A stretch of DNA of 64,000 bases from an uncultured virus (IMG/VR IMGVR_UViG_3300028840_008158) (lineage: Duplodnaviria; Heunggongvirae; Uroviricota; Caudoviricetes), in the IMG/VR virus record IMGVR_UViG_3300028840_008158. One strand, 5' to 3'. Below the pieces are notes generated by a model, which was not told the DNA's origin, did not search any database, and saw only the letters and a program-made list of their open reading frames with translations. Positions within the stretch are counted from its first letter, which is position 1. Every line of letters starts with the position of its first letter. Below are positions 1-51,477 of this stretch, in pieces. The position numbers and the translations under genes are program-made.

Positions 1-216
1 TTAGTCGTCGTCCTTGAACGGGACGATCCATTCGTAAATGATCGAGATGGTCACGAGCGGGGCGATCACGACGCATAGGACGGCGAGCGCCCTCGTCGCG
101 TCCTTGCGTCCGCCCATCGCGTCCATGATGATCCTGGCGCGCCTGGGCGGCTCGTAAAAACACAAGACCATCAGGTTCCAGGCCGCGAGCGCGGCCCACG
201 CGATGACGATGTCCAT
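1..216 (-). CDS. small membrane protein (2 hydrophobic segments)
   Basis: ORF MDIVIAWAAL...PFKDDD; start trimmed so it does not overlap tRNA-Pro. Confidence 0.5.
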   Translation of the reverse strand: MDIVIAWAALAAWNLMVLCFYEPPRRARIIMDAMGGRKDATRALAVLCVVIAPLVTISIIYEWIVPFKDDD

Positions 217-293
217 GCACGGATCATACATGACGGGACCGAGGGGATCGCTCCCCGGAAGAAAATCTTCCCTGTCATCAGTCCCGTCGAATT

Positions 294-369
294 TGGTCGG
301 AGGCCCCGGTATCGCGCCGAGCCATGCGTGGTCCCAAACCACGTGGGTTCACTTGCTCCCTCGCCTCCG
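294..369 (-). tRNA. tRNA-Pro(UGG), atypical T-loop
   Basis: acceptor CGGAGGC/GCCTCCG-A-CCA; anticodon arm CGTGG-TTTGGGA-CCACG; T-loop CGCGATA. Confidence 0.85.
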
Positions 370-371
370 AA

Positions 372-448
372 TGGCAGTGGCGGCGGGAATCGAACCCGCT
401 AAGCGCTGGTTTTGGAGGCCAGCCGAGGTACCCACCCTCTGCGCCACT
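372..448 (-). tRNA. tRNA-Trp(CCA)
   Basis: acceptor AGTGGCG/CGCCACT-G-CCA; loop CTCCAAA; T arm GCGGG-TTCGATT-CCCGC. Confidence 0.85.
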
Positions 449-458
449 GTGAACGAAG

Positions 459-576
459 TGGACCGGACGGGAATCGAACCCGTATCGCGGAGCGACCGCA
501 TTTGCCGATGGTTCCCGGTCTGGCCCGGGGACTCTCGTCTAAACGGTTTTCCCTCGACCTCGCGGGTTTCCGGCCC
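459..576 (-). ncRNA. 118-nt RNA resembling the tRNA-like domain of tmRNA (Ala-type acceptor, no anticodon arm)
   Basis: GGGCCGG/CCGGTCC acceptor with G3.U70 and discriminator A; T arm ACGGG-TTCGATT-CCCGT; UCGA motif after an unpaired D region; no CCA encoded. Confidence 0.65.
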
Positions 577-583
577 GTGAAAC

Positions 584-661
584 TGGTCGGGGCGGTGGGA
601 CTTGAACCCACGATCTCCGGTCCCCCAGACCGGCGGACACTCCAAGCTGTCCCGCGCCCCG
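584..661 (-). tRNA. tRNA-Pro(GGG)
   Basis: CGGGGCG/CGCCCCG-A-CCA; CCGGT-CTGGGGG-ACCGG. Confidence 0.92.
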
Positions 662-666
662 TAAAT

Positions 667-1045
667 TGATGACCCTGACGGGAGTCGAACCCGCATTCCG
701 ACCCAAAAAAGGCTTTTCAGGAAACCCGATTCCCTGCCACGGCGATGTCTGCTGGGCCCGACGCGGTTACCCGCGCCGGCGTGGACCCGGTTCACGAAAC
801 CTATGCGCCTTCCGCCGATTTCGCCCCTCCAACCCACGGCTGGAACTCGGGGCTAGTCGACCAAGGGTCGCCCGCCTCTGACGGCGGGACCGTCCTTTCC
901 AAGGTTTTTGACGGCGTGGACCCATGGATCGCTCTTCGGGCGACGCCCGACGGGGAAGGATGACCAGCCCCTCGTTGCGATCTAAAGGACCGGGTTCCTT
1001 CGACCCCCGCTGATGGGAGATCGATCCTCTTCCACTAACAGGGCC
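667..1045 (-). ncRNA. about 379-nt structured RNA closed by a tRNA-like acceptor stem and T arm (tmRNA-sized, identity unresolved)
   Basis: 5' GGCCCTG pairs with 3' CAGGGTC-A-TCA; T arm GCGGG-TTCGACT-CCCGT; long-range helices 962-971/849-858 and 989-995/785-791; several hairpins. Confidence 0.65.
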
Positions 1046-1104
1046 ATATGTTTGTTGTCCCCGCTACCACCCGCGTTTTTGATGAGGTTCGCGAGAAACC
1101 GAAT

Positions 1105-1182
1105 TGGTCGGGGAGGCGGGATTTGAACCCGCGATCTCCTGGATCCGAACCAGGCGGACACTCCAAGCTGTCCCGCTCCCCG
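1105..1182 (-). tRNA. tRNA-Pro(CGG)
   Basis: CGGGGAG/CTCCCCG-A-CCA; CCTGG-TTCGGAT-CCAGG. Confidence 0.92.
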
Positions 1183-1184
1183 TC

Positions 1185-1259
1185 TGGAGCCCCACCCAGG
1201 ACTTGCGCCTGGCTCTCAAGTTTACGAAACTTGCGCGTCGCTATCTACGCATGTGGGGC
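1185..1259 (-). tRNA. tRNA-Thr(CGU), atypical T-loop
   Basis: GCCCCAC/GTGGGGC-T-CCA; CAAGT-TTCGTAA-ACTTG; T-loop CGCAAGT. Confidence 0.85.
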
Positions 1260-1261
1260 GT

Positions 1262-1337
1262 TGGTCGGCGCCGGAGGAATCGAACCTGCCATCTCGACCT
1301 TATCAGGATCGCGTTATCACCATTCTACTAGGCGCCG
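1262..1337 (-). tRNA. tRNA-Ile(GAU)
   Basis: CGGCGCC/GGCGCCG-A-CCA; CGATC-CTGATAA-GGTCG. Confidence 0.85.
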
Positions 1338-1349
1338 AAAGAAGACGTT

Positions 1350-1435
1350 TGGTAGTGAACGTGAGGACTCGAACCTCTTAGCCGATCGGCAGCGACTTTA
1401 CAGGCCGCTTGGTTTCCCCCAACGATAGCGCTCCC
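1350..1435 (-). tRNA. tRNA-Tyr(GUA), imperfect acceptor and D arm
   Basis: GCGGC-CTGTAAA-GTCGC; long variable arm GCCGATCGGC; T-loop TTCGAGT; ends in ACCA. Confidence 0.7.
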
Positions 1436-1439
1436 ACGT

Positions 1440-1515
1440 TGATGGCCATAGCAGGGCTCGAACCTGCGTCCAGTCGGATTCAGAGCCGACCGCTCTACCG
1501 CTGAGCTACATGGCC
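1440..1515 (-). tRNA. tRNA with 8-nt anticodon loop CUCUGAAU (possibly Gln-CUG)
   Basis: GGCCATG/TATGGCC-A-TCA; D arm GCTC-AGCGGTA-GAGC; GTCGG-CTCTGAAT-CCGAC. Confidence 0.75.
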
Positions 1516-1525
1516 ATCCTTGAAC

Positions 1526-1612
1526 TGGTGGGCCGGGAGGGACTCGAACCCCCGTATTCCGTACGGAAACGTGGTCTACAGCCACGCGCAATTGCCGCTC
1601 TGCCACCGACCC
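1526..1612 (-). tRNA. tRNA-Tyr(GUA)
   Basis: GGGTCGG/CCGGCCC-A-CCA; CGTGG-CTGTAGA-CCACG; long variable arm. Confidence 0.9.
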
Positions 1613-1617
1613 TAAGT

Positions 1618-1695
1618 TGGTATCCCCACGGGGATTCGAACCCCGGTCTCGAGGCTGAGAACCTCGGATCCTGAGCCAGGCTAGAAGATGGGGAC
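1618..1695 (-). tRNA. tRNA-Glu(CUC)
   Basis: GTCCCCA/TGGGGAT-A-CCA; CGAGG-TTCTCAG-CCTCG; T-loop TTCGAAT. Confidence 0.92.
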
Positions 1696-1700
1696 GCCTA

Positions 1701-1775
1701 TGAAGACCCCTGGAGGAATCGAACCATCCGTATCCGAGCTATCTGCCCGGCGTCCTGCCACTAGACGAAGGGGTC
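1701..1775 (-). tRNA. tRNA-like gene with Glu-type body and non-canonical loop CAGAUAG (possible pseudo-tRNA)
   Basis: GACCCCT/AGGGGTC; D arm TCGTCTAGTGGCAGGAC; A at position 33; bulged T stem. Confidence 0.55.
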
Positions 1776-1794
1776 GTCTTCGTTCGCCTATTCC

Positions 1795-1807
1795 GTTGTC
1801 AAACAGC
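1795..1807 (-). promoter_or_regulatory. boxA-like Nus antitermination element
   Basis: GCTGTTTGACAAC, resembling rrn boxA TGCTCTTTAACA, about 20 nt before the first tRNA. Confidence 0.5.
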
Positions 1808-1871
1808 GGCGAGGGCGCGCACATCCGAGGCTTCCGGCTGCCTCCCCCGCTTCCTTCTTTGCGGCTCCGCC

Positions 1872-1911
1872 AAATGAAAAACCCCCGGGGTTTTTCGGCC
1901 CCGGGGGTTTC
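1872..1911 (-). terminator. intrinsic terminator acting as attenuator in the tRNA-operon leader
   Basis: GAAACCCCCGGGG-CCGAAAAA-CCCCGGGGGTTTTTCATTT, located between promoter and tRNAs. Confidence 0.85.
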
Positions 1912-1928
1912 GGCGGAAAACTTCTGGC

Positions 1929-2027
1929 TCAGCCCCCGAGGCTCGTGGGTGTATACCACGGCTGCTCGGTCCGTTCTTGGACCGCCGTGGTAATCACCTG
2001 AGTCGTCGTAGGGCTAAAGCTCAACAT
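1929..2027 (-). CDS. 32-aa leader peptide MLSFSPTTTQVITTAVQERTEQPWYTPTSLGG
   Basis: ATG at 2027 with GAGGA upstream; TGA 17 nt before the terminator; 3' end complementary to the terminator 5' arm. Confidence 0.8.
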   Translation of the reverse strand: MLSFSPTTTQVITTAVQERTEQPWYTPTSLGG

Positions 2028-2069
2028 TTCTCTCGTTCCTCAGGACCGGACCGCCCGGCCCTCGTAAGT

Positions 2070-2098
2070 AAGATACGCCAGAGGCGCCGTCCTGTCAA
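2070..2098 (-). promoter_or_regulatory. sigma70-type promoter of the tRNA operon
   Basis: TTGACA (2093-2098), 17 bp spacer, TATCTT (2070-2075); A-tracts upstream like an UP element. Confidence 0.85.
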
Positions 2099-2274
2099 AT
2101 CTTTTCTGAGTTTTTTTTCGACTTCCTTCTTTTGGGCATCGGATTTCCCTCACCGACCTGCCTCATGATCCTGCCGACGACCTTGCTCGAGATGGGCTTC
2201 GCTCGGATCCTGGGCGTCATGATGTTTCCCTCCGATCCTACTGGTTCGTTCCGGGAAAGGCCGTTCGATCCCTC

Positions 2275-2302
2275 TTGACGTCACCATAGGAGGGTGTATC
2301 AT
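2275..2302 (+). promoter_or_regulatory. sigma70-type promoter
   Basis: TTGACG, 16 bp spacer, TATCAT. Confidence 0.55.
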
Positions 2303-2325
2303 TTAATCGTGCGAGGGAGACGAGC

Positions 2326-2472
2326 GTGCCGAACCTGATCGCCAAATGTCGTTGCGGGGAGATTTACGTCCCCGTGAGGCAATGGGAGCCATGCGGCGCC
2401 TGCCGGGCCAAGGAGCGTCTCGACTGGCTGGCCCGGCACCCCAAGAGAAGGAAGAAGGTCAAGAGGAAATGA
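2326..2472 (+). CDS. 48-aa basic zinc-finger-like protein
   Basis: GTG start after GGGAG; CRCG...CGAC; Lys/Arg tail; missing from the ORF track. Confidence 0.5.
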   Translation: MPNLIAKCRCGEIYVPVRQWEPCGACRAKERLDWLARHPKRRKKVKRK

Positions 2473-2473
2473 A

Positions 2474-2956
2474 ATGTTCCTGAAGGTTTGGAACGGGACC
2501 AAAGTCGCGTCCCTGCGCAAGGTCGTCGGTCGCGCCGTAGTCTTCTCTTCCATGATGCTCTGGATGAACCTGACCCTGGTCTACGCGCATCTGGGATTCT
2601 GGCTCAGCGGAATCACCGGGACGGCGTCCGTATTCTTCGCCCTCCTCTCCGTGGGGGCATCGTACCTCATGTACGTCGTCCTCGTCATGACCTACTTCAG
2701 ATGGAGGATCCTCGGGCTGACGGATACCCTGAAGGACGACCTCCGCGAGGACCTCGTCGACAAGTGCCCGACGCGGGAGGCGTCCGTCTACGTCGCCCTG
2801 TTCTCGTTGTTCCAGTTCTCGAGGACGAACGAGCTGCGATGGGACGAGTTCGACGCGGTCTTCTTCGGCATATTCCCTGGTGCCAGGATAACCGTCACCC
2901 AAAGGAAGGTCATGAATGAGCTCTGCGGATTGGCCCCCGCCGAGGGAACCTGGTAA
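2474..2956 (+). CDS. hypothetical membrane protein
   Basis: RBS GAGG; two hydrophobic segments. Confidence 0.65.
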   Translation: MFLKVWNGTKVASLRKVVGRAVVFSSMMLWMNLTLVYAHLGFWLSGITGTASVFFALLSVGASYLMYVVLVMTYFRWRILGLTDTLKDDLREDLVDKCPTREASVYVALFSLFQFSRTNELRWDEFDAVFFGIFPGARITVTQRKVMNELCGLAPAEGTW

Positions 2957-3632
2957 AAAACCCCTCTTCCATCATTGCGCGTCGATCGAGGTCGTCCTCC
3001 GTGACGAGATCGTCCCGTCGCCCCATTGGACGAGGAGCCAGTCCCTCCTCGTGTCCGAGGAGATGAGGGAGGTTCGAGGACGACCCGAGGACAAGGACGT
3101 CGACGAGCATTTCGCCGATGACGAGGTCAAGCCCAACGCGTGGCTGCGCGACCAAGTCGGCTTCTACCCCCTATTTCTTGGGGTCGGGGACTCGCTCGAC
3201 GCCGTCCAGATGACGAACTACCCCGGCCAATGGCGCGACGTCATCGGGGGGGAGTCCTTCGACGGGAAATGGAAGAACACCCGGCGTCGGAAGGGAAAGT
3301 TCCCGAACTACGTCCTCCTCTCCTACGAGGACCTTCCTGGCGTCGTCTTCCTCGACTACGACGACTGGTTCCTGATCCTGAACTCGAGCCACAACGACTA
3401 CAAGATCACGGACCGGGAACGACGCATGGTCCTGAAGCCGTCCTGGAGGAGGAGCGACTGGCTAAGGAAGGTTCGTCGGCAGCCCGGGTCCGTCATGGCC
3501 GTCATCCCGAGGCTCCGGCCCCGAGACGCGCTCCAGGCTTGCGTCCGAAACGAGGCCTCCGCGAGGCTTCTGCGCGATTCTGGGTTCGCAAACGTAGCCC
3601 GGTGGAGGGTCAGGCTCGGGGATTGGGCCTAA
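2916..3632 (+). CDS. hypothetical protein
   Basis: 238-aa ORF with phage-like codon usage. Confidence 0.65.
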   Translation: MSSADWPPPREPGKKPLFHHCASIEVVLRDEIVPSPHWTRSQSLLVSEEMREVRGRPEDKDVDEHFADDEVKPNAWLRDQVGFYPLFLGVGDSLDAVQMTNYPGQWRDVIGGESFDGKWKNTRRRKGKFPNYVLLSYEDLPGVVFLDYDDWFLILNSSHNDYKITDRERRMVLKPSWRRSDWLRKVRRQPGSVMAVIPRLRPRDALQACVRNEASARLLRDSGFANVARWRVRLGDWA

Positions 3633-3755
3633 GGAGGAAGAATGAGCCGCCGCCATGTCGAAGTCGAAATGACGGCCTACGCCGACAGCAGGACGATGCG
3701 CCTACGCGGGCGCCTTCCATGGCGACCCAATGGGTCCTGAAGGAGACGTGGCTCG

Positions 3756-3983
3756 TCATCGGACGCCGATCCTGCCCCTGAACGAGCCGCTCCAGTTCCC
3801 CCGGAAGGAGCCCGCGGGGACGTTGATCTGGAAGTGATAGGTTGTCCCGGAGTTGGTCGTGTACGTCCCCGTTTGGTTCCCCAAATATCCACCCGTCGAG
3901 GTCGGCCCCGGAGGCCAGGACGTCGACCTCCCCACGGGAGTCACCTTCTTGGGCACGAAACGCTTCGCCTTAATCGGCTTCAT
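3756..3983 (-). CDS. hypothetical protein
   Basis: overlaps the stop of the upstream ARH-like gene; GAGGGG RBS. Confidence 0.45.
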   Translation of the reverse strand: MKPIKAKRFVPKKVTPVGRSTSWPPGPTSTGGYLGNQTGTYTTNSGTTYHFQINVPAGSFRGNWSGSFRGRIGVR

Positions 3984-4917
3984 CGGTCAACCCCCTCGCC
4001 ATGGCCAACACCCTGTTCGATCCCTCCACGTCGCGAACGAGCGCGGGGGGTATCTCCCTGACGCCAGCGAACGCCCCGATCATGGCCCCCAGGACCGCGC
4101 CGCGGATCGAGGCCGCCCCGCCTAGGCCGATCGCCTCCGTCACCGCCCCGAAGTCCTCGGGCCGGTTCATGAAGCAGAACACGCAGAAAGACACGAGCTC
4201 GACGACGTCACGCGAATGGCCGTTGAGGGCGGCGAACTCGGTGACGCGGCATTTGCCCTGCAACCTGGCCCTCGCGTACGCCAGGCGTTCCGACATCGGG
4301 TCGTCGGTTCGTTCCGGTATCTTCTCCTCGACCTCCCGGCAAAAGCCTATCAACTGGTGCAGCAACGAGCCCTCCTTGTCGTAGAGGTCCGAGGGCCGCG
4401 AGTACGCGTCGTGGTTGCGGACCGTCTCCTTGACGACCTTGGCCGCGACCCACGCGGAGAGGATCGCCGGCCTGAAGGCGTGCGTCGGCAACGCCGCGAC
4501 CTTGCAAGCCACGAGGAGCTCCTTGTCGGTCTTGTCCGTCGCCGCCGCCCACGCGCCAAGCGGGCAGAGCTTCGCGGCCAGCTCCGCCCCGAGGCTCTCC
4601 GGGCTCCCGCGCTCCATCATCGGGTCGTCCGAGTCGAGCGTCTTCGTCCATCGTTCCGGGACGTTCCTGGCCTGGAGCTTCTCGTGCGCCCGGACGGACG
4701 ATTCCTCCGTCGGGCCTCCGGAATGGAAGGCCGAAAGGATCATGAACCCGGCCCTCGTCGCGGACGAGAACGACCCCGTTTTCCCGAAGTAGTCGTCTAT
4801 CTTCTGGAACCTGCGCGTCACGTCATAAGCCGACAGGCCGTTCGCGGGAGCCCCGAGGGCGTCCCCAACGGCTTGCCCTGCCAGGGCGCCTGCGACCCTC
4901 GCGGATATGATGCCCAA
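3970..4917 (-). CDS. ADP-ribosylglycohydrolase (DraG/ARH) fold protein, catalytic acids missing
   Basis: GALAGQAVGDALGAP, ALPTH, GAVLGAMIGAFAG..IP; TDD and DxD motifs replaced. Confidence 0.8.
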   Translation of the reverse strand: MGIISARVAGALAGQAVGDALGAPANGLSAYDVTRRFQKIDDYFGKTGSFSSATRAGFMILSAFHSGGPTEESSVRAHEKLQARNVPERWTKTLDSDDPMMERGSPESLGAELAAKLCPLGAWAAATDKTDKELLVACKVAALPTHAFRPAILSAWVAAKVVKETVRNHDAYSRPSDLYDKEGSLLHQLIGFCREVEEKIPERTDDPMSERLAYARARLQGKCRVTEFAALNGHSRDVVELVSFCVFCFMNRPEDFGAVTEAIGLGGAASIRGAVLGAMIGAFAGVREIPPALVRDVEGSNRVLAMARGLTDEAD

Positions 4918-4920
4918 GGC

Positions 4921-5127
4921 TCAGTCCTTCTTTTCCGTCTCCTCGAAAGCGAACGGGAACTTGTCCTCGAACGCCTGGATCAATTCCCTAGCATGCCGGG
5001 CCGGGTAGGTCAAGTCCTCGACCCTTATGCGGCAGTTCCCCGCGTCTTCCGGATCGAACTCTATCGACCAGTTGTCGATCCCTTCGACCCTGAAAACGGA
5101 CGTAACCCATGACTTCTTGTCGGACAT
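4921..5127 (-). CDS. hypothetical protein
   Basis: MSDKKSW..., tightly packed in the operon. Confidence 0.55.
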   Translation of the reverse strand: MSDKKSWVTSVFRVEGIDNWSIEFDPEDAGNCRIRVEDLTYPARHARELIQAFEDKFPFAFEETEKKD

Positions 5128-5129
5128 TT

Positions 5130-5492
5130 TCACCACCTCGTCTCCAAGTCCCTTAGCTCGACGACGAACGGCTCGCCGATCCCCTTGTCGTACCCTTCCA
5201 CGGAAGGGAAGGAATCCTCGACGAGAATCAGCGGCTCGTCGCCCCCCATGTCGACGCGGCAACGGCAGTACAGGGCGACGTCGGCGCGGCGATTGGCGGA
5301 GAGCCGGAACATGACCGCGAAGGGCTCTCCGGTCGTCTCCTTCCCCTCCAGCCAGTCATACAGCGCGGCCTGGCGCTCGACGCGCAACAACTCCATGAGG
5401 CGCCCGTCGGACAACAGCCGCGACATGCGCTCCACGAACTCGCGCTCGGTCATCCCGGCCATCGCGGCCAGGTGGCCGAGCCCCGCCGTCAT
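5130..5492 (-). CDS. hypothetical protein
   Basis: MTAGLGH..., ATGA overlap with the upstream gene. Confidence 0.6.
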   Translation of the reverse strand: MTAGLGHLAAMAGMTEREFVERMSRLLSDGRLMELLRVERQAALYDWLEGKETTGEPFAVMFRLSANRRADVALYCRCRVDMGGDEPLILVEDSFPSVEGYDKGIGEPFVVELRDLETRW

Positions 5493-5728
5493 TCCTTCGA
5501 GGCGAGGACGACGCCTTCCGCGTCGGTCGCGATCCCGATGCACTTGGCCGACACGAGATGGCCATCGGTCCAGACGTACCCCTCCGAGTCGGACTCCGAG
5601 TTGGCGACCTGCCTCGCCGAATCCTCGTTGCGCCCCGCGACGATCATCTTGGAGATCTCGCCCGCCATGGGCGTGTCGCTCCTCTCCAACAGGTACAGCT
5701 TGATCTGGATGCTCTTCCCGTCTTCCAT
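5489..5728 (-). CDS. hypothetical phage protein
   Basis: MEDGKSIQ..., AAGGAG RBS. Confidence 0.6.
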   Translation of the reverse strand: MEDGKSIQIKLYLLERSDTPMAGEISKMIVAGRNEDSARQVANSESDSEGYVWTDGHLVSAKCIGIATDAEGVVLASKE

Positions 5729-5811
5729 CTGGCTCTCTCCTTGACATGTTTCGTCCCCGGTTCGCGGACTCTTGGTGACATCATACGGCGTTGGGGGGGC
5801 GAGCGTTGGAT

Positions 5812-6414
5812 TTACGAGCGAGAAACTTTGCGCTTTTGGATGAGCCATGCGGGGTCGGTGGGGCGCCACCTCCTGGTGACGGCGTAAAGCGGGTTCGAAT
5901 GTTCAAGCTTTCCGTTGTCCAGCCGGCTTCTTTCGAGCCACCTGATCTCGTCGACGATGTCATTATGGAACAAGTCCGACAAGTCCCTCAGCCTCCGGGC
6001 CGATCGCTCGTCGAGGGCGAACCCGATGATCCACCCCATCCTCCTGAGTGACACGGGGAACTCGTCGATTCCGTTCGTCGAGTGCGCGAAGCCAAGGCCC
6101 TGACGGGCCATTTTCCTGCTTGGCGAAGCCCCCTTGAACCTGGCGATCGACTTGGCCCTGAACTTGTAAGGGCGATCATTTTGGTCCCTGGTCTTGTAGG
6201 TTTCGCCAATGACGACCGCGTACCCCTTGGGAACCCTGTTGGTCCGACGGATGTCGGCCCCCCAGATGTCGGCGGTGACGGGCTCCGTCCTGTTCTCGGA
6301 AGCCATCTGGGACATTCTCTGCGAATGGTTGACACGAACTTCGTCGACCTGGAAGTCAAATTTCTCGATCTCGGCGAAGGCTTCCCCGAGTTCGCTGACG
6401 TCGTCCCTGTCCAT
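5812..6414 (-). CDS. hypothetical protein; N-terminus resembles an HK97 major-capsid A-domain fragment
   Basis: AFAEIEKFDFQV...ADIWGADIRRTNRVPKGYAVV; AAGGAG RBS. Confidence 0.55.
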   Translation of the reverse strand: MDRDDVSELGEAFAEIEKFDFQVDEVRVNHSQRMSQMASENRTEPVTADIWGADIRRTNRVPKGYAVVIGETYKTRDQNDRPYKFRAKSIARFKGASPSRKMARQGLGFAHSTNGIDEFPVSLRRMGWIIGFALDERSARRLRDLSDLFHNDIVDEIRWLERSRLDNGKLEHSNPLYAVTRRWRPTDPAWLIQKRKVSRS

Positions 6415-51148: not shown

Positions 51149-51477
51149 TTGATCTTCTCCTCGCGCTCGCGTTTCTCTACCCGATAGGATCCCCCCTCCG
51201 TGTTGACCCTGAAGTCCCAGTCGTACTTCATCCTGACGCCAGGTTTGTTGCCGCCGAGGGCACGCCTGGCCTCCATCGTCATCAGCCGCAGGAATTCGTC
51301 GTCGTTGGCTTTCTCGAGTTCGTTCGAGGGCTCGAAGACGGCCCGGAAGGGAAGGATTTTGCCCTTCCAGGTGAGCAGGACGCTGGCCTCCGACTTGCTC
51401 CTCTGCCCGACGACATGATTGATTGCCTTTTTCCTGATGACCCGGGGCTGTTTCCTTTTGCGACGCCTTTTATTCAT
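51145..51477 (-). CDS. basic hypothetical protein
   Basis: MNKRRRKRK..., GGAGGGAG RBS. Confidence 0.55.
   Translation of the reverse strand: MNKRRRKRKQPRVIRKKAINHVVGQRSKSEASVLLTWKGKILPFRAVFEPSNELEKANDDEFLRLMTMEARRALGGNKPGVRMKYDWDFRVNTEGGSYRVEKREREEKIK

Follow-up and report, generated by a model that had tools for sequence, protein, structure and literature searches.

The minus strand of a 64,000-nucleotide stretch of DNA (the window) from an uncultured virus of the Caudoviricetes (IMG/VR record IMGVR_UViG_3300028840_008158) carries, ahead of a large tRNA array, a short leader region that is probably a leader-peptide transcription attenuator at the head of an operon of tRNA genes and a PTH2-type peptidyl-tRNA hydrolase gene. 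The features of this leader are real and non-random. In the trp, his, leu, ilvGMEDA, pheA, and pheST leaders, the position of the ribosome on the leader open reading frame (ORF) selects the antiterminator or the terminator, and the pheST leader illustrates that a gene of the translation apparatus can be controlled by attenuation. The mechanism proposed here would be of this known kind, with a new target (tRNA genes) and a new design, in which the leader ORF samples the array with one codon per anticodon. An attenuator with codons that mirror the array had been put forward in a preliminary description of this DNA; it is upheld in silico by the codon match, by a three-state geometry, and by analogous leaders in phiCbK-like phages, but the zone that would act as sensor and the extent of the array are revised. 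The features concerned are as follows (positions in the window, except where the metagenome contig L002 is named).

2098-2070, minus strand: sigma-70-like promoter TTGACA-17 nt-TATCTT, with 10/12 matches in a consensus scan and an A-rich stretch 5' of it
2062-2042, minus strand: 5'-terminal hairpin of the leader transcript, predicted at -14.9 kcal/mol
2041-2037, minus strand: Shine-Dalgarno-like GAGGA, 9-10 nt 5' of the ATG
2027-1929, minus strand: leader ORF of 32 codons plus TGA, MLSFSPTTTQVITTAVQERTEQPWYTPTSLGG, with the array-matched stretch at codons 6-28
2022-2008, minus strand: region 1, protector strand, which pairs with region 2 in the long hairpin of the untranslated RNA
1942-1933, minus strand: region 2, GCCUCGGGGG, within the last ORF codons, with region 1 or the terminator 5' arm (antiterminator) as its partner
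1916-1868, minus strand: full terminator structure with outer stem CCGCCGAAA/UUUGGCGG (1916-1908 paired with 1875-1868), -30.9 kcal/mol
1907-1877, minus strand: terminator hairpin CCCCCGGGG-8 nt-CCCCGGGGG followed by TTTTT, with 9 G-C pairs
1907-1898, minus strand: region 3, terminator 5' arm CCCCCGGGG(C), from folding and the terminator scan
1890-1877, minus strand: region 4, terminator 3' arm CCCCGGGGG (1890-1882) and U-run (1881-1877), from folding and the terminator scan
1807-1796, minus strand: candidate boxA-like site GCTGTTTGACAA, from sequence only
1775-294, minus strand: in-window part of the tRNA array (ARAGORN and Rfam), which continues left of the window (L002 2681-4368)
L002 3189-3581, minus strand: PTH2-type peptidyl-tRNA hydrolase gene (Pfam PF01981, E = 1.6e-33), between Gln-CUG and Thr-UGU

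Both the promoter and the unannotated 32-codon ORF of the preliminary description were found on the minus strand. Sites of the form TTGACA-N16-18-TANNNT number two in the 64 kb, against 0.28 expected, and the leader promoter is one of them. In the consensus scan it is the only promoter-like site on the minus strand up to the end of the array, the next one lying after the last tRNA, and no further promoter-like or terminator-like site was found on that strand between the leader and the last tRNA. Transcription would start near 2063 and give a leader transcript of about 190 nt. A 41-codon Lys/Arg-rich ORF with a strong GGAGGG ribosome site lies just upstream (2220-2095, minus strand), and its stop codon sits within the -35 hexamer of the leader promoter; because of this arrangement, transcripts initiated farther upstream may run into the leader as well.

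The array is larger than is visible in the window and also includes the PTH2 gene. From the leader onward, its in-window part begins with an Ile-GAU-like tRNA, Glu-CUC, Tyr-GUA, a tRNA whose 8-nt anticodon loop contains CUG, another, weak Tyr-GUA, and Ile-GAU. It continues with Thr-CGU (weak) and Pro-CGG; beyond a gap of 440 nt come Pro-GGG, a tRNA-like element, Trp-CCA, and a weak Pro-UGG. The array then runs past window position 1, and its remainder was read on contig L002, where a 113-codon ORF is followed by Ile-GAU, a tRNA that is unusual in its short anticodon loop, and Gln-CUG, then by a 71-codon ORF and the PTH2 gene, and finally by Thr-UGU, Glu-UUC, Gln-UUG, Val-CAC, and Thr-GGU. In total, about 19 tRNAs serve eight amino acids only (Ile, Glu, Tyr, Gln, Thr, Pro, Trp, and Val).

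Evidence for a regulatory link between leader and array comes from the codon content of the ORF. The tRNAs of the full array can read 20 of the 31 leader codons, where the background fraction is 0.28-0.29 (P = 2.7e-5 to 4.7e-5), and the leader ranks second for array-readable codons among 389 ORFs of 20-60 codons, behind one low-complexity antisense ORF in a collagen-like repeat. Codons 6-28 contain 20/23 readable codons, which is the single maximum among 127,864 segments in all six frames (best elsewhere, 17), and the signal belongs to one frame, with the other two frames of the same DNA giving 3/31 and 11/31. The part of the array outside the window provides an out-of-sample test: of the 18 leader codons that the in-window tRNAs do not read, seven are read by the five tRNAs outside the window (P = 1.2e-4 to 6.1e-4). 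For each of the 12 confidently called anticodons, the leader contains a strict cognate codon (P = 1.5e-5 for all 12), whereas random 31-codon ORFs cover 5.25 of the 12 on average; among 74,296 stop-free 31-codon segments, only the leader's own six reach this coverage, and one other locus reaches 11.

The preliminary description had rested on a narrower match, in which seven of the eight codons 21-28 correspond to tRNAs within the window. Codons and matches are as stated there, except that Thr-CGU is called only at a relaxed ARAGORN threshold. By itself, such a match is not unusual, since 15 of 127,954 eight-codon segments score at least 7; a stronger codon signal appears only when the full array, beyond window position 1, is included.

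The ORF is followed by the strong intrinsic terminator that had been placed at 1911-1872. The hairpin and U-run at 1907-1877 are the strongest of eight terminator-like sites in our own scan of the whole window, with a predicted energy of -21.1 kcal/mol for the core and -30.9 kcal/mol with the outer stem. The hairpin is absent from the list of a standard consensus terminator scan, probably because the T-run can base-pair with an A-run that precedes the stem. The end of the ORF (CCUCGGGGG, 1941-1933) can pair with the terminator 5' arm over the 9 bp proposed earlier, and the best such duplex extends to 10 bp (1942-1933 with 1907-1898; -23.9 kcal/mol); the local antiterminator fold is predicted at -23.3 kcal/mol, compared with -21.1 kcal/mol for the terminator core. 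This complementarity between regions 2 and 3 is equalled or exceeded in just 9 of 1000 dinucleotide-shuffled versions of the upstream leader (P ~0.009). The whole ORF folds into one long hairpin (-52.1 kcal/mol), and the 204-nt leader is far more structured than its shuffles (z = -6.0). A hairpin reported inside the ORF (1992-1984 with 1962-1954) is present, not as a separate element but as part of this single hairpin.

Folding of the leader with and without a ribosome footprint, as proposed in the preliminary description, yields three states in a nascent-RNA model, in which the transcript ends at 1897, just before the terminator 3' arm, and a footprint is placed at each A-site codon. Without a ribosome, region 1 pairs with region 2, and the terminator 5' arm is free. 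With the A site at codons 2-11, the 10-bp antiterminator between regions 2 and 3 forms, and this range widens to codons 2-25 if pairs spanning the ribosome are forbidden. Once the A site is at codons 27-33, the ribosome masks region 2 and no antiterminator forms, in line with the earlier proposal that a ribosome reaching the stop codon masks the antiterminator strand. Leader codons mirror the array as had been claimed, but the sensor zone is better placed at codons 6-25 than at codons 21-28, as masking begins at codon 27. The same script applied to Escherichia coli thrL gives 0 paired arm bases without a ribosome, 6-9 with the ribosome at codons 2-16, and 0 at codons 20-22; because this is the expected off/on/off pattern, the nascent-RNA model reproduces a known attenuator.

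Analogous leaders occur in phages related to Caulobacter phage phiCbK (NC_019405.1; L004), which was reached via the tRNA matches of a blastn search. In phiCbK, annotated terminators, among them those at NC_019405.1 49745-49769 and 51465-51502, lie directly 5' of tRNA blocks. The 45-codon ORF gp335, rich in Ser, Leu, Ala, Pro, and Lys codons, precedes a block of Pro, Pro, Lys, Lys, Leu (three), Ala, Ser, and Ser tRNAs; 23 of its 44 codons match that block, and it samples 10/10 of the block's anticodons. GenBank annotates gp335 as a hypothetical protein and marks the terminators. Before the Phe, Val, Ile, Ile, Val, Gln, Gln block, a promoter-like TTGACA-17-TAGGGT is followed by a 32-codon ORF (MSKTYRQFVRQIQVV...) and an annotated terminator. 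The transcript of this ORF is probably leaderless, because the start codon lies only about 6 nt past the -10 hexamer.

L004 10503-10601 (NC_019405.1 about 51341-51439): unannotated 32-codon phiCbK ORF between the promoter and the annotated terminator

Homologous leaders are present in Rogue, Colossus, Papperlapapp, and Bajun. For the Pro/Lys/Leu/Ala/Ser block, 22-25 of 38-44 codons match in 5/5 phages examined (P = 6e-4 to 6e-6), and 10/10 anticodons are sampled in all three phages counted; for the Phe/Val/Ile/Gln block, 10-15 of 30-31 codons match in 3/3 phages. In a block-swap control with three mutually related phiCbK-like phages, 116/278 leader codons match their own block and 41/556 match the other blocks. 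Agreement between leader codons and array anticodons, which the preliminary description had proposed to look for in other phage arrays, is therefore block-specific in phiCbK-like phages, apart from their Glu/Asp leaders. In the Phe/Val/Ile/Gln leader of Bajun, moreover, the terminator 5' arm carries a C-to-T change and the complementary strand inside the ORF a G-to-A change; this double change from G-C to A-U retains the antiterminator pair while replacing the encoded Ala with Thr. A term search of the text of the phiCbK genome paper finds neither 'attenuat' nor 'leader'.

These data can be combined into the following model. The promoter at 2098-2070 would start the leader of about 190 nt, and a ribosome would translate the ORF while the polymerase nears 1907-1877. 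If no ribosome is engaged, region 1 would pair with region 2 in the long ORF hairpin and the terminator would form. If a ribosome moves quickly to the stop codon, it would cover region 2 (1942-1933), so that the terminator would form and the tRNA genes would stay off. If a ribosome lingers in codons 2-25, region 2 would be free, with region 1 covered or held apart, and region 2 could pair with the 5' arm while the 3' arm is not yet transcribed, in a kinetic competition that would let the polymerase read into the operon. What is sensed would be slow decoding over a zone that includes codons 6-25 and samples every confidently called array anticodon, and what is controlled would be the approximately 19 tRNAs of the array, the small ORFs, and the PTH2 peptidyl-tRNA hydrolase. 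The net effect would be negative feedback on the supply of array tRNAs, with the operon turned on if these are scarce, uncharged, or damaged, and turned off again when decoding is accelerated by the tRNAs of the phage itself. As to the physiological trigger, simple feedback on tRNA supply would explain the layout as well as cleavage by anticodon nucleases does.

A wider hypothesis is that unrelated phage lineages have repeatedly evolved sampler leaders that poll every anticodon of a tRNA block, and that the leader described here gates its approximately 19 tRNAs and PTH2 as a translation-stress sensor, switching on a repair kit if host tRNAs run short, are uncharged, or are cleaved by anticodon nucleases, and switching it off once phage tRNAs restore decoding speed. 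This hypothesis is tentative, and we regard it as somewhat doubtful in its full form.

Several results weigh against attenuation. At equilibrium, with all four strands present, the terminator forms in 33/33 ribosome states (P = 1.0). Equilibrium folding with ribosome masks therefore failed as a demonstration of the switch; any switch must be kinetic, and read-through needs a kinetic trap beyond the present model. Without the assumption that pairs cannot span the ribosome, 9 of the 14 states at codons 12-25 retain the pairing between regions 1 and 2. The spacing between GAGGA and the ATG, although inside the range of the window's other genes, is at its long end. The codon set and wobble rules behind the match statistics were fixed after the array had been seen, and the array contains four tRNA-like elements with unreadable anticodons. 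In the phiCbK-like phages, the leaders of the Glu/Asp block show no block specificity, with matches at only 3 of 19-20 codons, the P-value of the block-swap control overstates independence because the three phages are related, the Phe/Val/Ile/Gln leaders of phiCbK and Bajun form the antiterminator even without a ribosome in the nascent-RNA model, and the fold of gp335 is uninformative, the script having chosen a poor hairpin. No matched leaders were seen by eye (unquantified) in the tRNA island of an unrelated 595-kb phage (LR756511.1; L003), which has a similar tRNA-Trp and HNH-like and other ORFs between its tRNAs. Finally, searches of IMG/VR and of phage, metagenome, and genome-contig data found no relatives in which the conservation of the ORF or the stems could be followed.

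Other explanations have to be set against the same evidence. The promoter and terminator, each the best of its kind in the window, bracket a very stable RNA (z = -6.0), the terminator is thermodynamically favoured in every state tested, and a bare TTGACA lies at 1802-1797, before the first tRNA, all of which would suit a stand-alone transcript ending at 1877, either a small RNA or the gene of a 32-residue peptide, with the array transcribed separately and the codon match without regulatory meaning. However, the TTGACA at 1802-1797 is not followed by a -10 hexamer, no other promoter-like site lies between the terminator and the array, and 1860-2100 matches no Rfam family at E up to 1. A stand-alone transcript also leaves unexplained the frame-specific codon match, the 12/12 anticodon coverage, and the overlap of the antiterminator strand with the final ORF codons, and the same layout occurs before tRNA blocks of unrelated phages; we consider it unlikely. 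That the match arose by chance, in a short open frame of GC-rich intergenic DNA accidentally rich in array codons, gains something from the weakness of the 7/8 statistic and from the antisense ORF in the collagen-like repeat that scores slightly above the leader. It is very improbable given P ~3e-5 for the pre-specified ORF, an out-of-sample P of 1e-4 to 6e-4, coverage of 12/12 anticodons that is unique in the window, and a frame-specific signal, and the promoter-terminator placement and the antiterminator complementarity (P ~0.009) are independent of the codon statistic.

A different question is whether an ORF that is translated and array-matched might act by another route, such as translation-dependent protection from Rho, an effect of the long hairpin on how the RNA is processed or how stable it is, or processive antitermination that starts from the boxA-like site. 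The codon match is strong, yet the switch cannot be demonstrated thermodynamically; the long hairpin covers the whole ORF; GCTGTTTGACAA at 1807-1796 is a candidate boxA-like site, as judged from the rrn boxA consensus; and the geometry in phiCbK and Bajun departs from the classical three-state form. On the other hand, the 10-bp complementarity between regions 2 and 3 is better than that of 991/1000 shuffles, region 2 lies exactly where a terminating ribosome would mask it, and a compensatory change keeps the equivalent pair in a phiCbK-like phage. Such a route is improbable, and attenuation by the leader peptide is the reading that we favour.

If attenuation is correct, several consequences follow. 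The usual view of phage tRNA genes is that they are expressed passively and help the phage by matching codon usage or by replacing host tRNAs that have been damaged. We know of no leader-peptide attenuator of tRNA genes, and a full-text literature search, with subscription journals largely outside its reach, found no published leader-peptide attenuation of such genes. The leader would then represent the first attenuation control of tRNA genes found in the literature searched, with decoding speed measured at the very codons that the array serves. It would account for phage tRNA islands that are cut into blocks by terminators and tiny "hypothetical" ORFs, and would provide a direct read-out of how phages sense the host translation machinery. 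The layout is present in phiCbK, a cultured phage of the model bacterium Caulobacter, which makes the idea testable at the bench.

Several tRNAs of the array are unusual. The tRNA at 1516-1441 (minus strand) scores 60 bits in Rfam and has the 8-nt anticodon loop CUCUGAAU, in which ARAGORN reads a four-base anticodon, CUGA; it has no encoded CCA, and is possibly a quadruplet reader or an expanded-loop Gln-type tRNA. Unusual anticodon loops, with A or C replacing the U before the anticodon or with only about 5 nt in the loop, are also seen at window 1704-1775, L002 4293-4368, and L002 4221-4291, and one of these three tRNAs has a bulged T-stem. Long gaps in the array (window 662-1104 and 460-576; L002 4100-4218) contain tRNA-like pieces in which the T-arm and acceptor end are good but the middle is over-long or unreadable; these pieces score 18-27 bits against tRNA-Sec and could be tRNAs with insertions or decayed genes. 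The unusual D-arm 18-mer of both phage Pro tRNAs recurs in tRNA-Met genes of two DPANN archaeal metagenome-assembled genomes, one of Nanoarchaeota and one of Woesearchaeota (L017 934-1009 and L018 2952-3028). A 33-codon TTG-start ORF rich in Pro and Trp (MERTVPPSEAGDPWSTSPEFQPWVGG...; 902-801, minus strand) lies ahead of the Pro-GGG/Trp-CCA/Pro-UGG sub-block. It was not counted as a second leader within the array, as 7/32 of its codons match (P = 0.08) and no strong terminator accompanies it.

The window has a G+C content of 56-66% and encodes a phage-type primase, a DnaB-like helicase, an exonuclease, many glycosyltransferases, and a collagen-like tail fibre. Positions 1-6173 are 100% identical to part of L002, a contig of 440,765 bp, and one window protein is on record from a contig of 546,851 bp; the source is therefore a very large uncultured phage. 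An ADP-ribosylglycohydrolase gene (Pfam E = 1.9e-22; 3970-4917, minus strand) lies near the tRNA array, and NADAR and ClpS genes are found in L002, farther downstream than the PTH2 gene. The ADP-ribosylglycohydrolase and NADAR genes suggest that the phage carries enzymes reversing ADP-ribosylation.

Searches for relatives covered several collections. IMG/VR scans with the terminator, two neighbouring proteins, and two tRNA segments found no relative, and the sole match (L001) was rejected as a chance 19-mer without a tRNA. A blastn search of window 1-2400 against 50,697 phage records gave tRNA matches only, and a tblastn search with the leader peptide gave no match. A neighbouring protein has four relatives, of at most 48% identity, all on contigs of 1-3 kb. 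The metagenome scan returned the same phage only (L002), and the genome-contig scan returned 10 chance matches without arrays. In four DNA runs, the matches were mostly tRNA fragments from other organisms, and none was a natural variant of the leader; one run (X3) yielded identical low-depth pieces with one single-contig insertion at 2079, and another (X6) yielded one contig that has 94% identity over 2093-2280 and stops at the -35 hexamer.

Among known systems, the closest comparison is with E. coli thrL (b0001), which likewise has a short ORF close to the promoter in which codons for more than one amino acid are abundant, mutually exclusive protector, antiterminator, and terminator structures with the same off/on/off pattern in the nascent-RNA model, and a similar peptide style, in which Thr and Ile occur in runs. 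The phage leader and thrL are unrelated in sequence and in Rfam family. Unlike the thr operon, the genes regulated here would be those of tRNAs and a peptidyl-tRNA hydrolase rather than of amino-acid synthesis enzymes, and, unlike thrL, the phage leader samples at least 12 anticodons for eight amino acids, most of them once or twice and with both or all synonymous codons included. The other enterobacterial leaders named above contain runs of one or a few codons, whereas the phage leader is a sampler of a whole array. T-box riboswitches also link the state of tRNA to terminator read-through before translation-related genes, but a T-box binds uncharged tRNA directly and needs no ORF, and 1860-2100 matches neither the T-box nor the curated Thr, Trp, His, and Leu leader families among the 4227 Rfam families searched at E up to 1. 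The units of phiCbK, Rogue, Colossus, Bajun, and Papperlapapp share with this leader the order of promoter, block-matched ORF of 30-45 codons, intrinsic terminator, and tRNAs, together with the sampling of every anticodon, but show no sequence similarity to it. In those phages, several blocks each have their own leader, and the leaders are without a protector helix in the model, whereas here a single leader, with a protector helix, precedes the whole operon.

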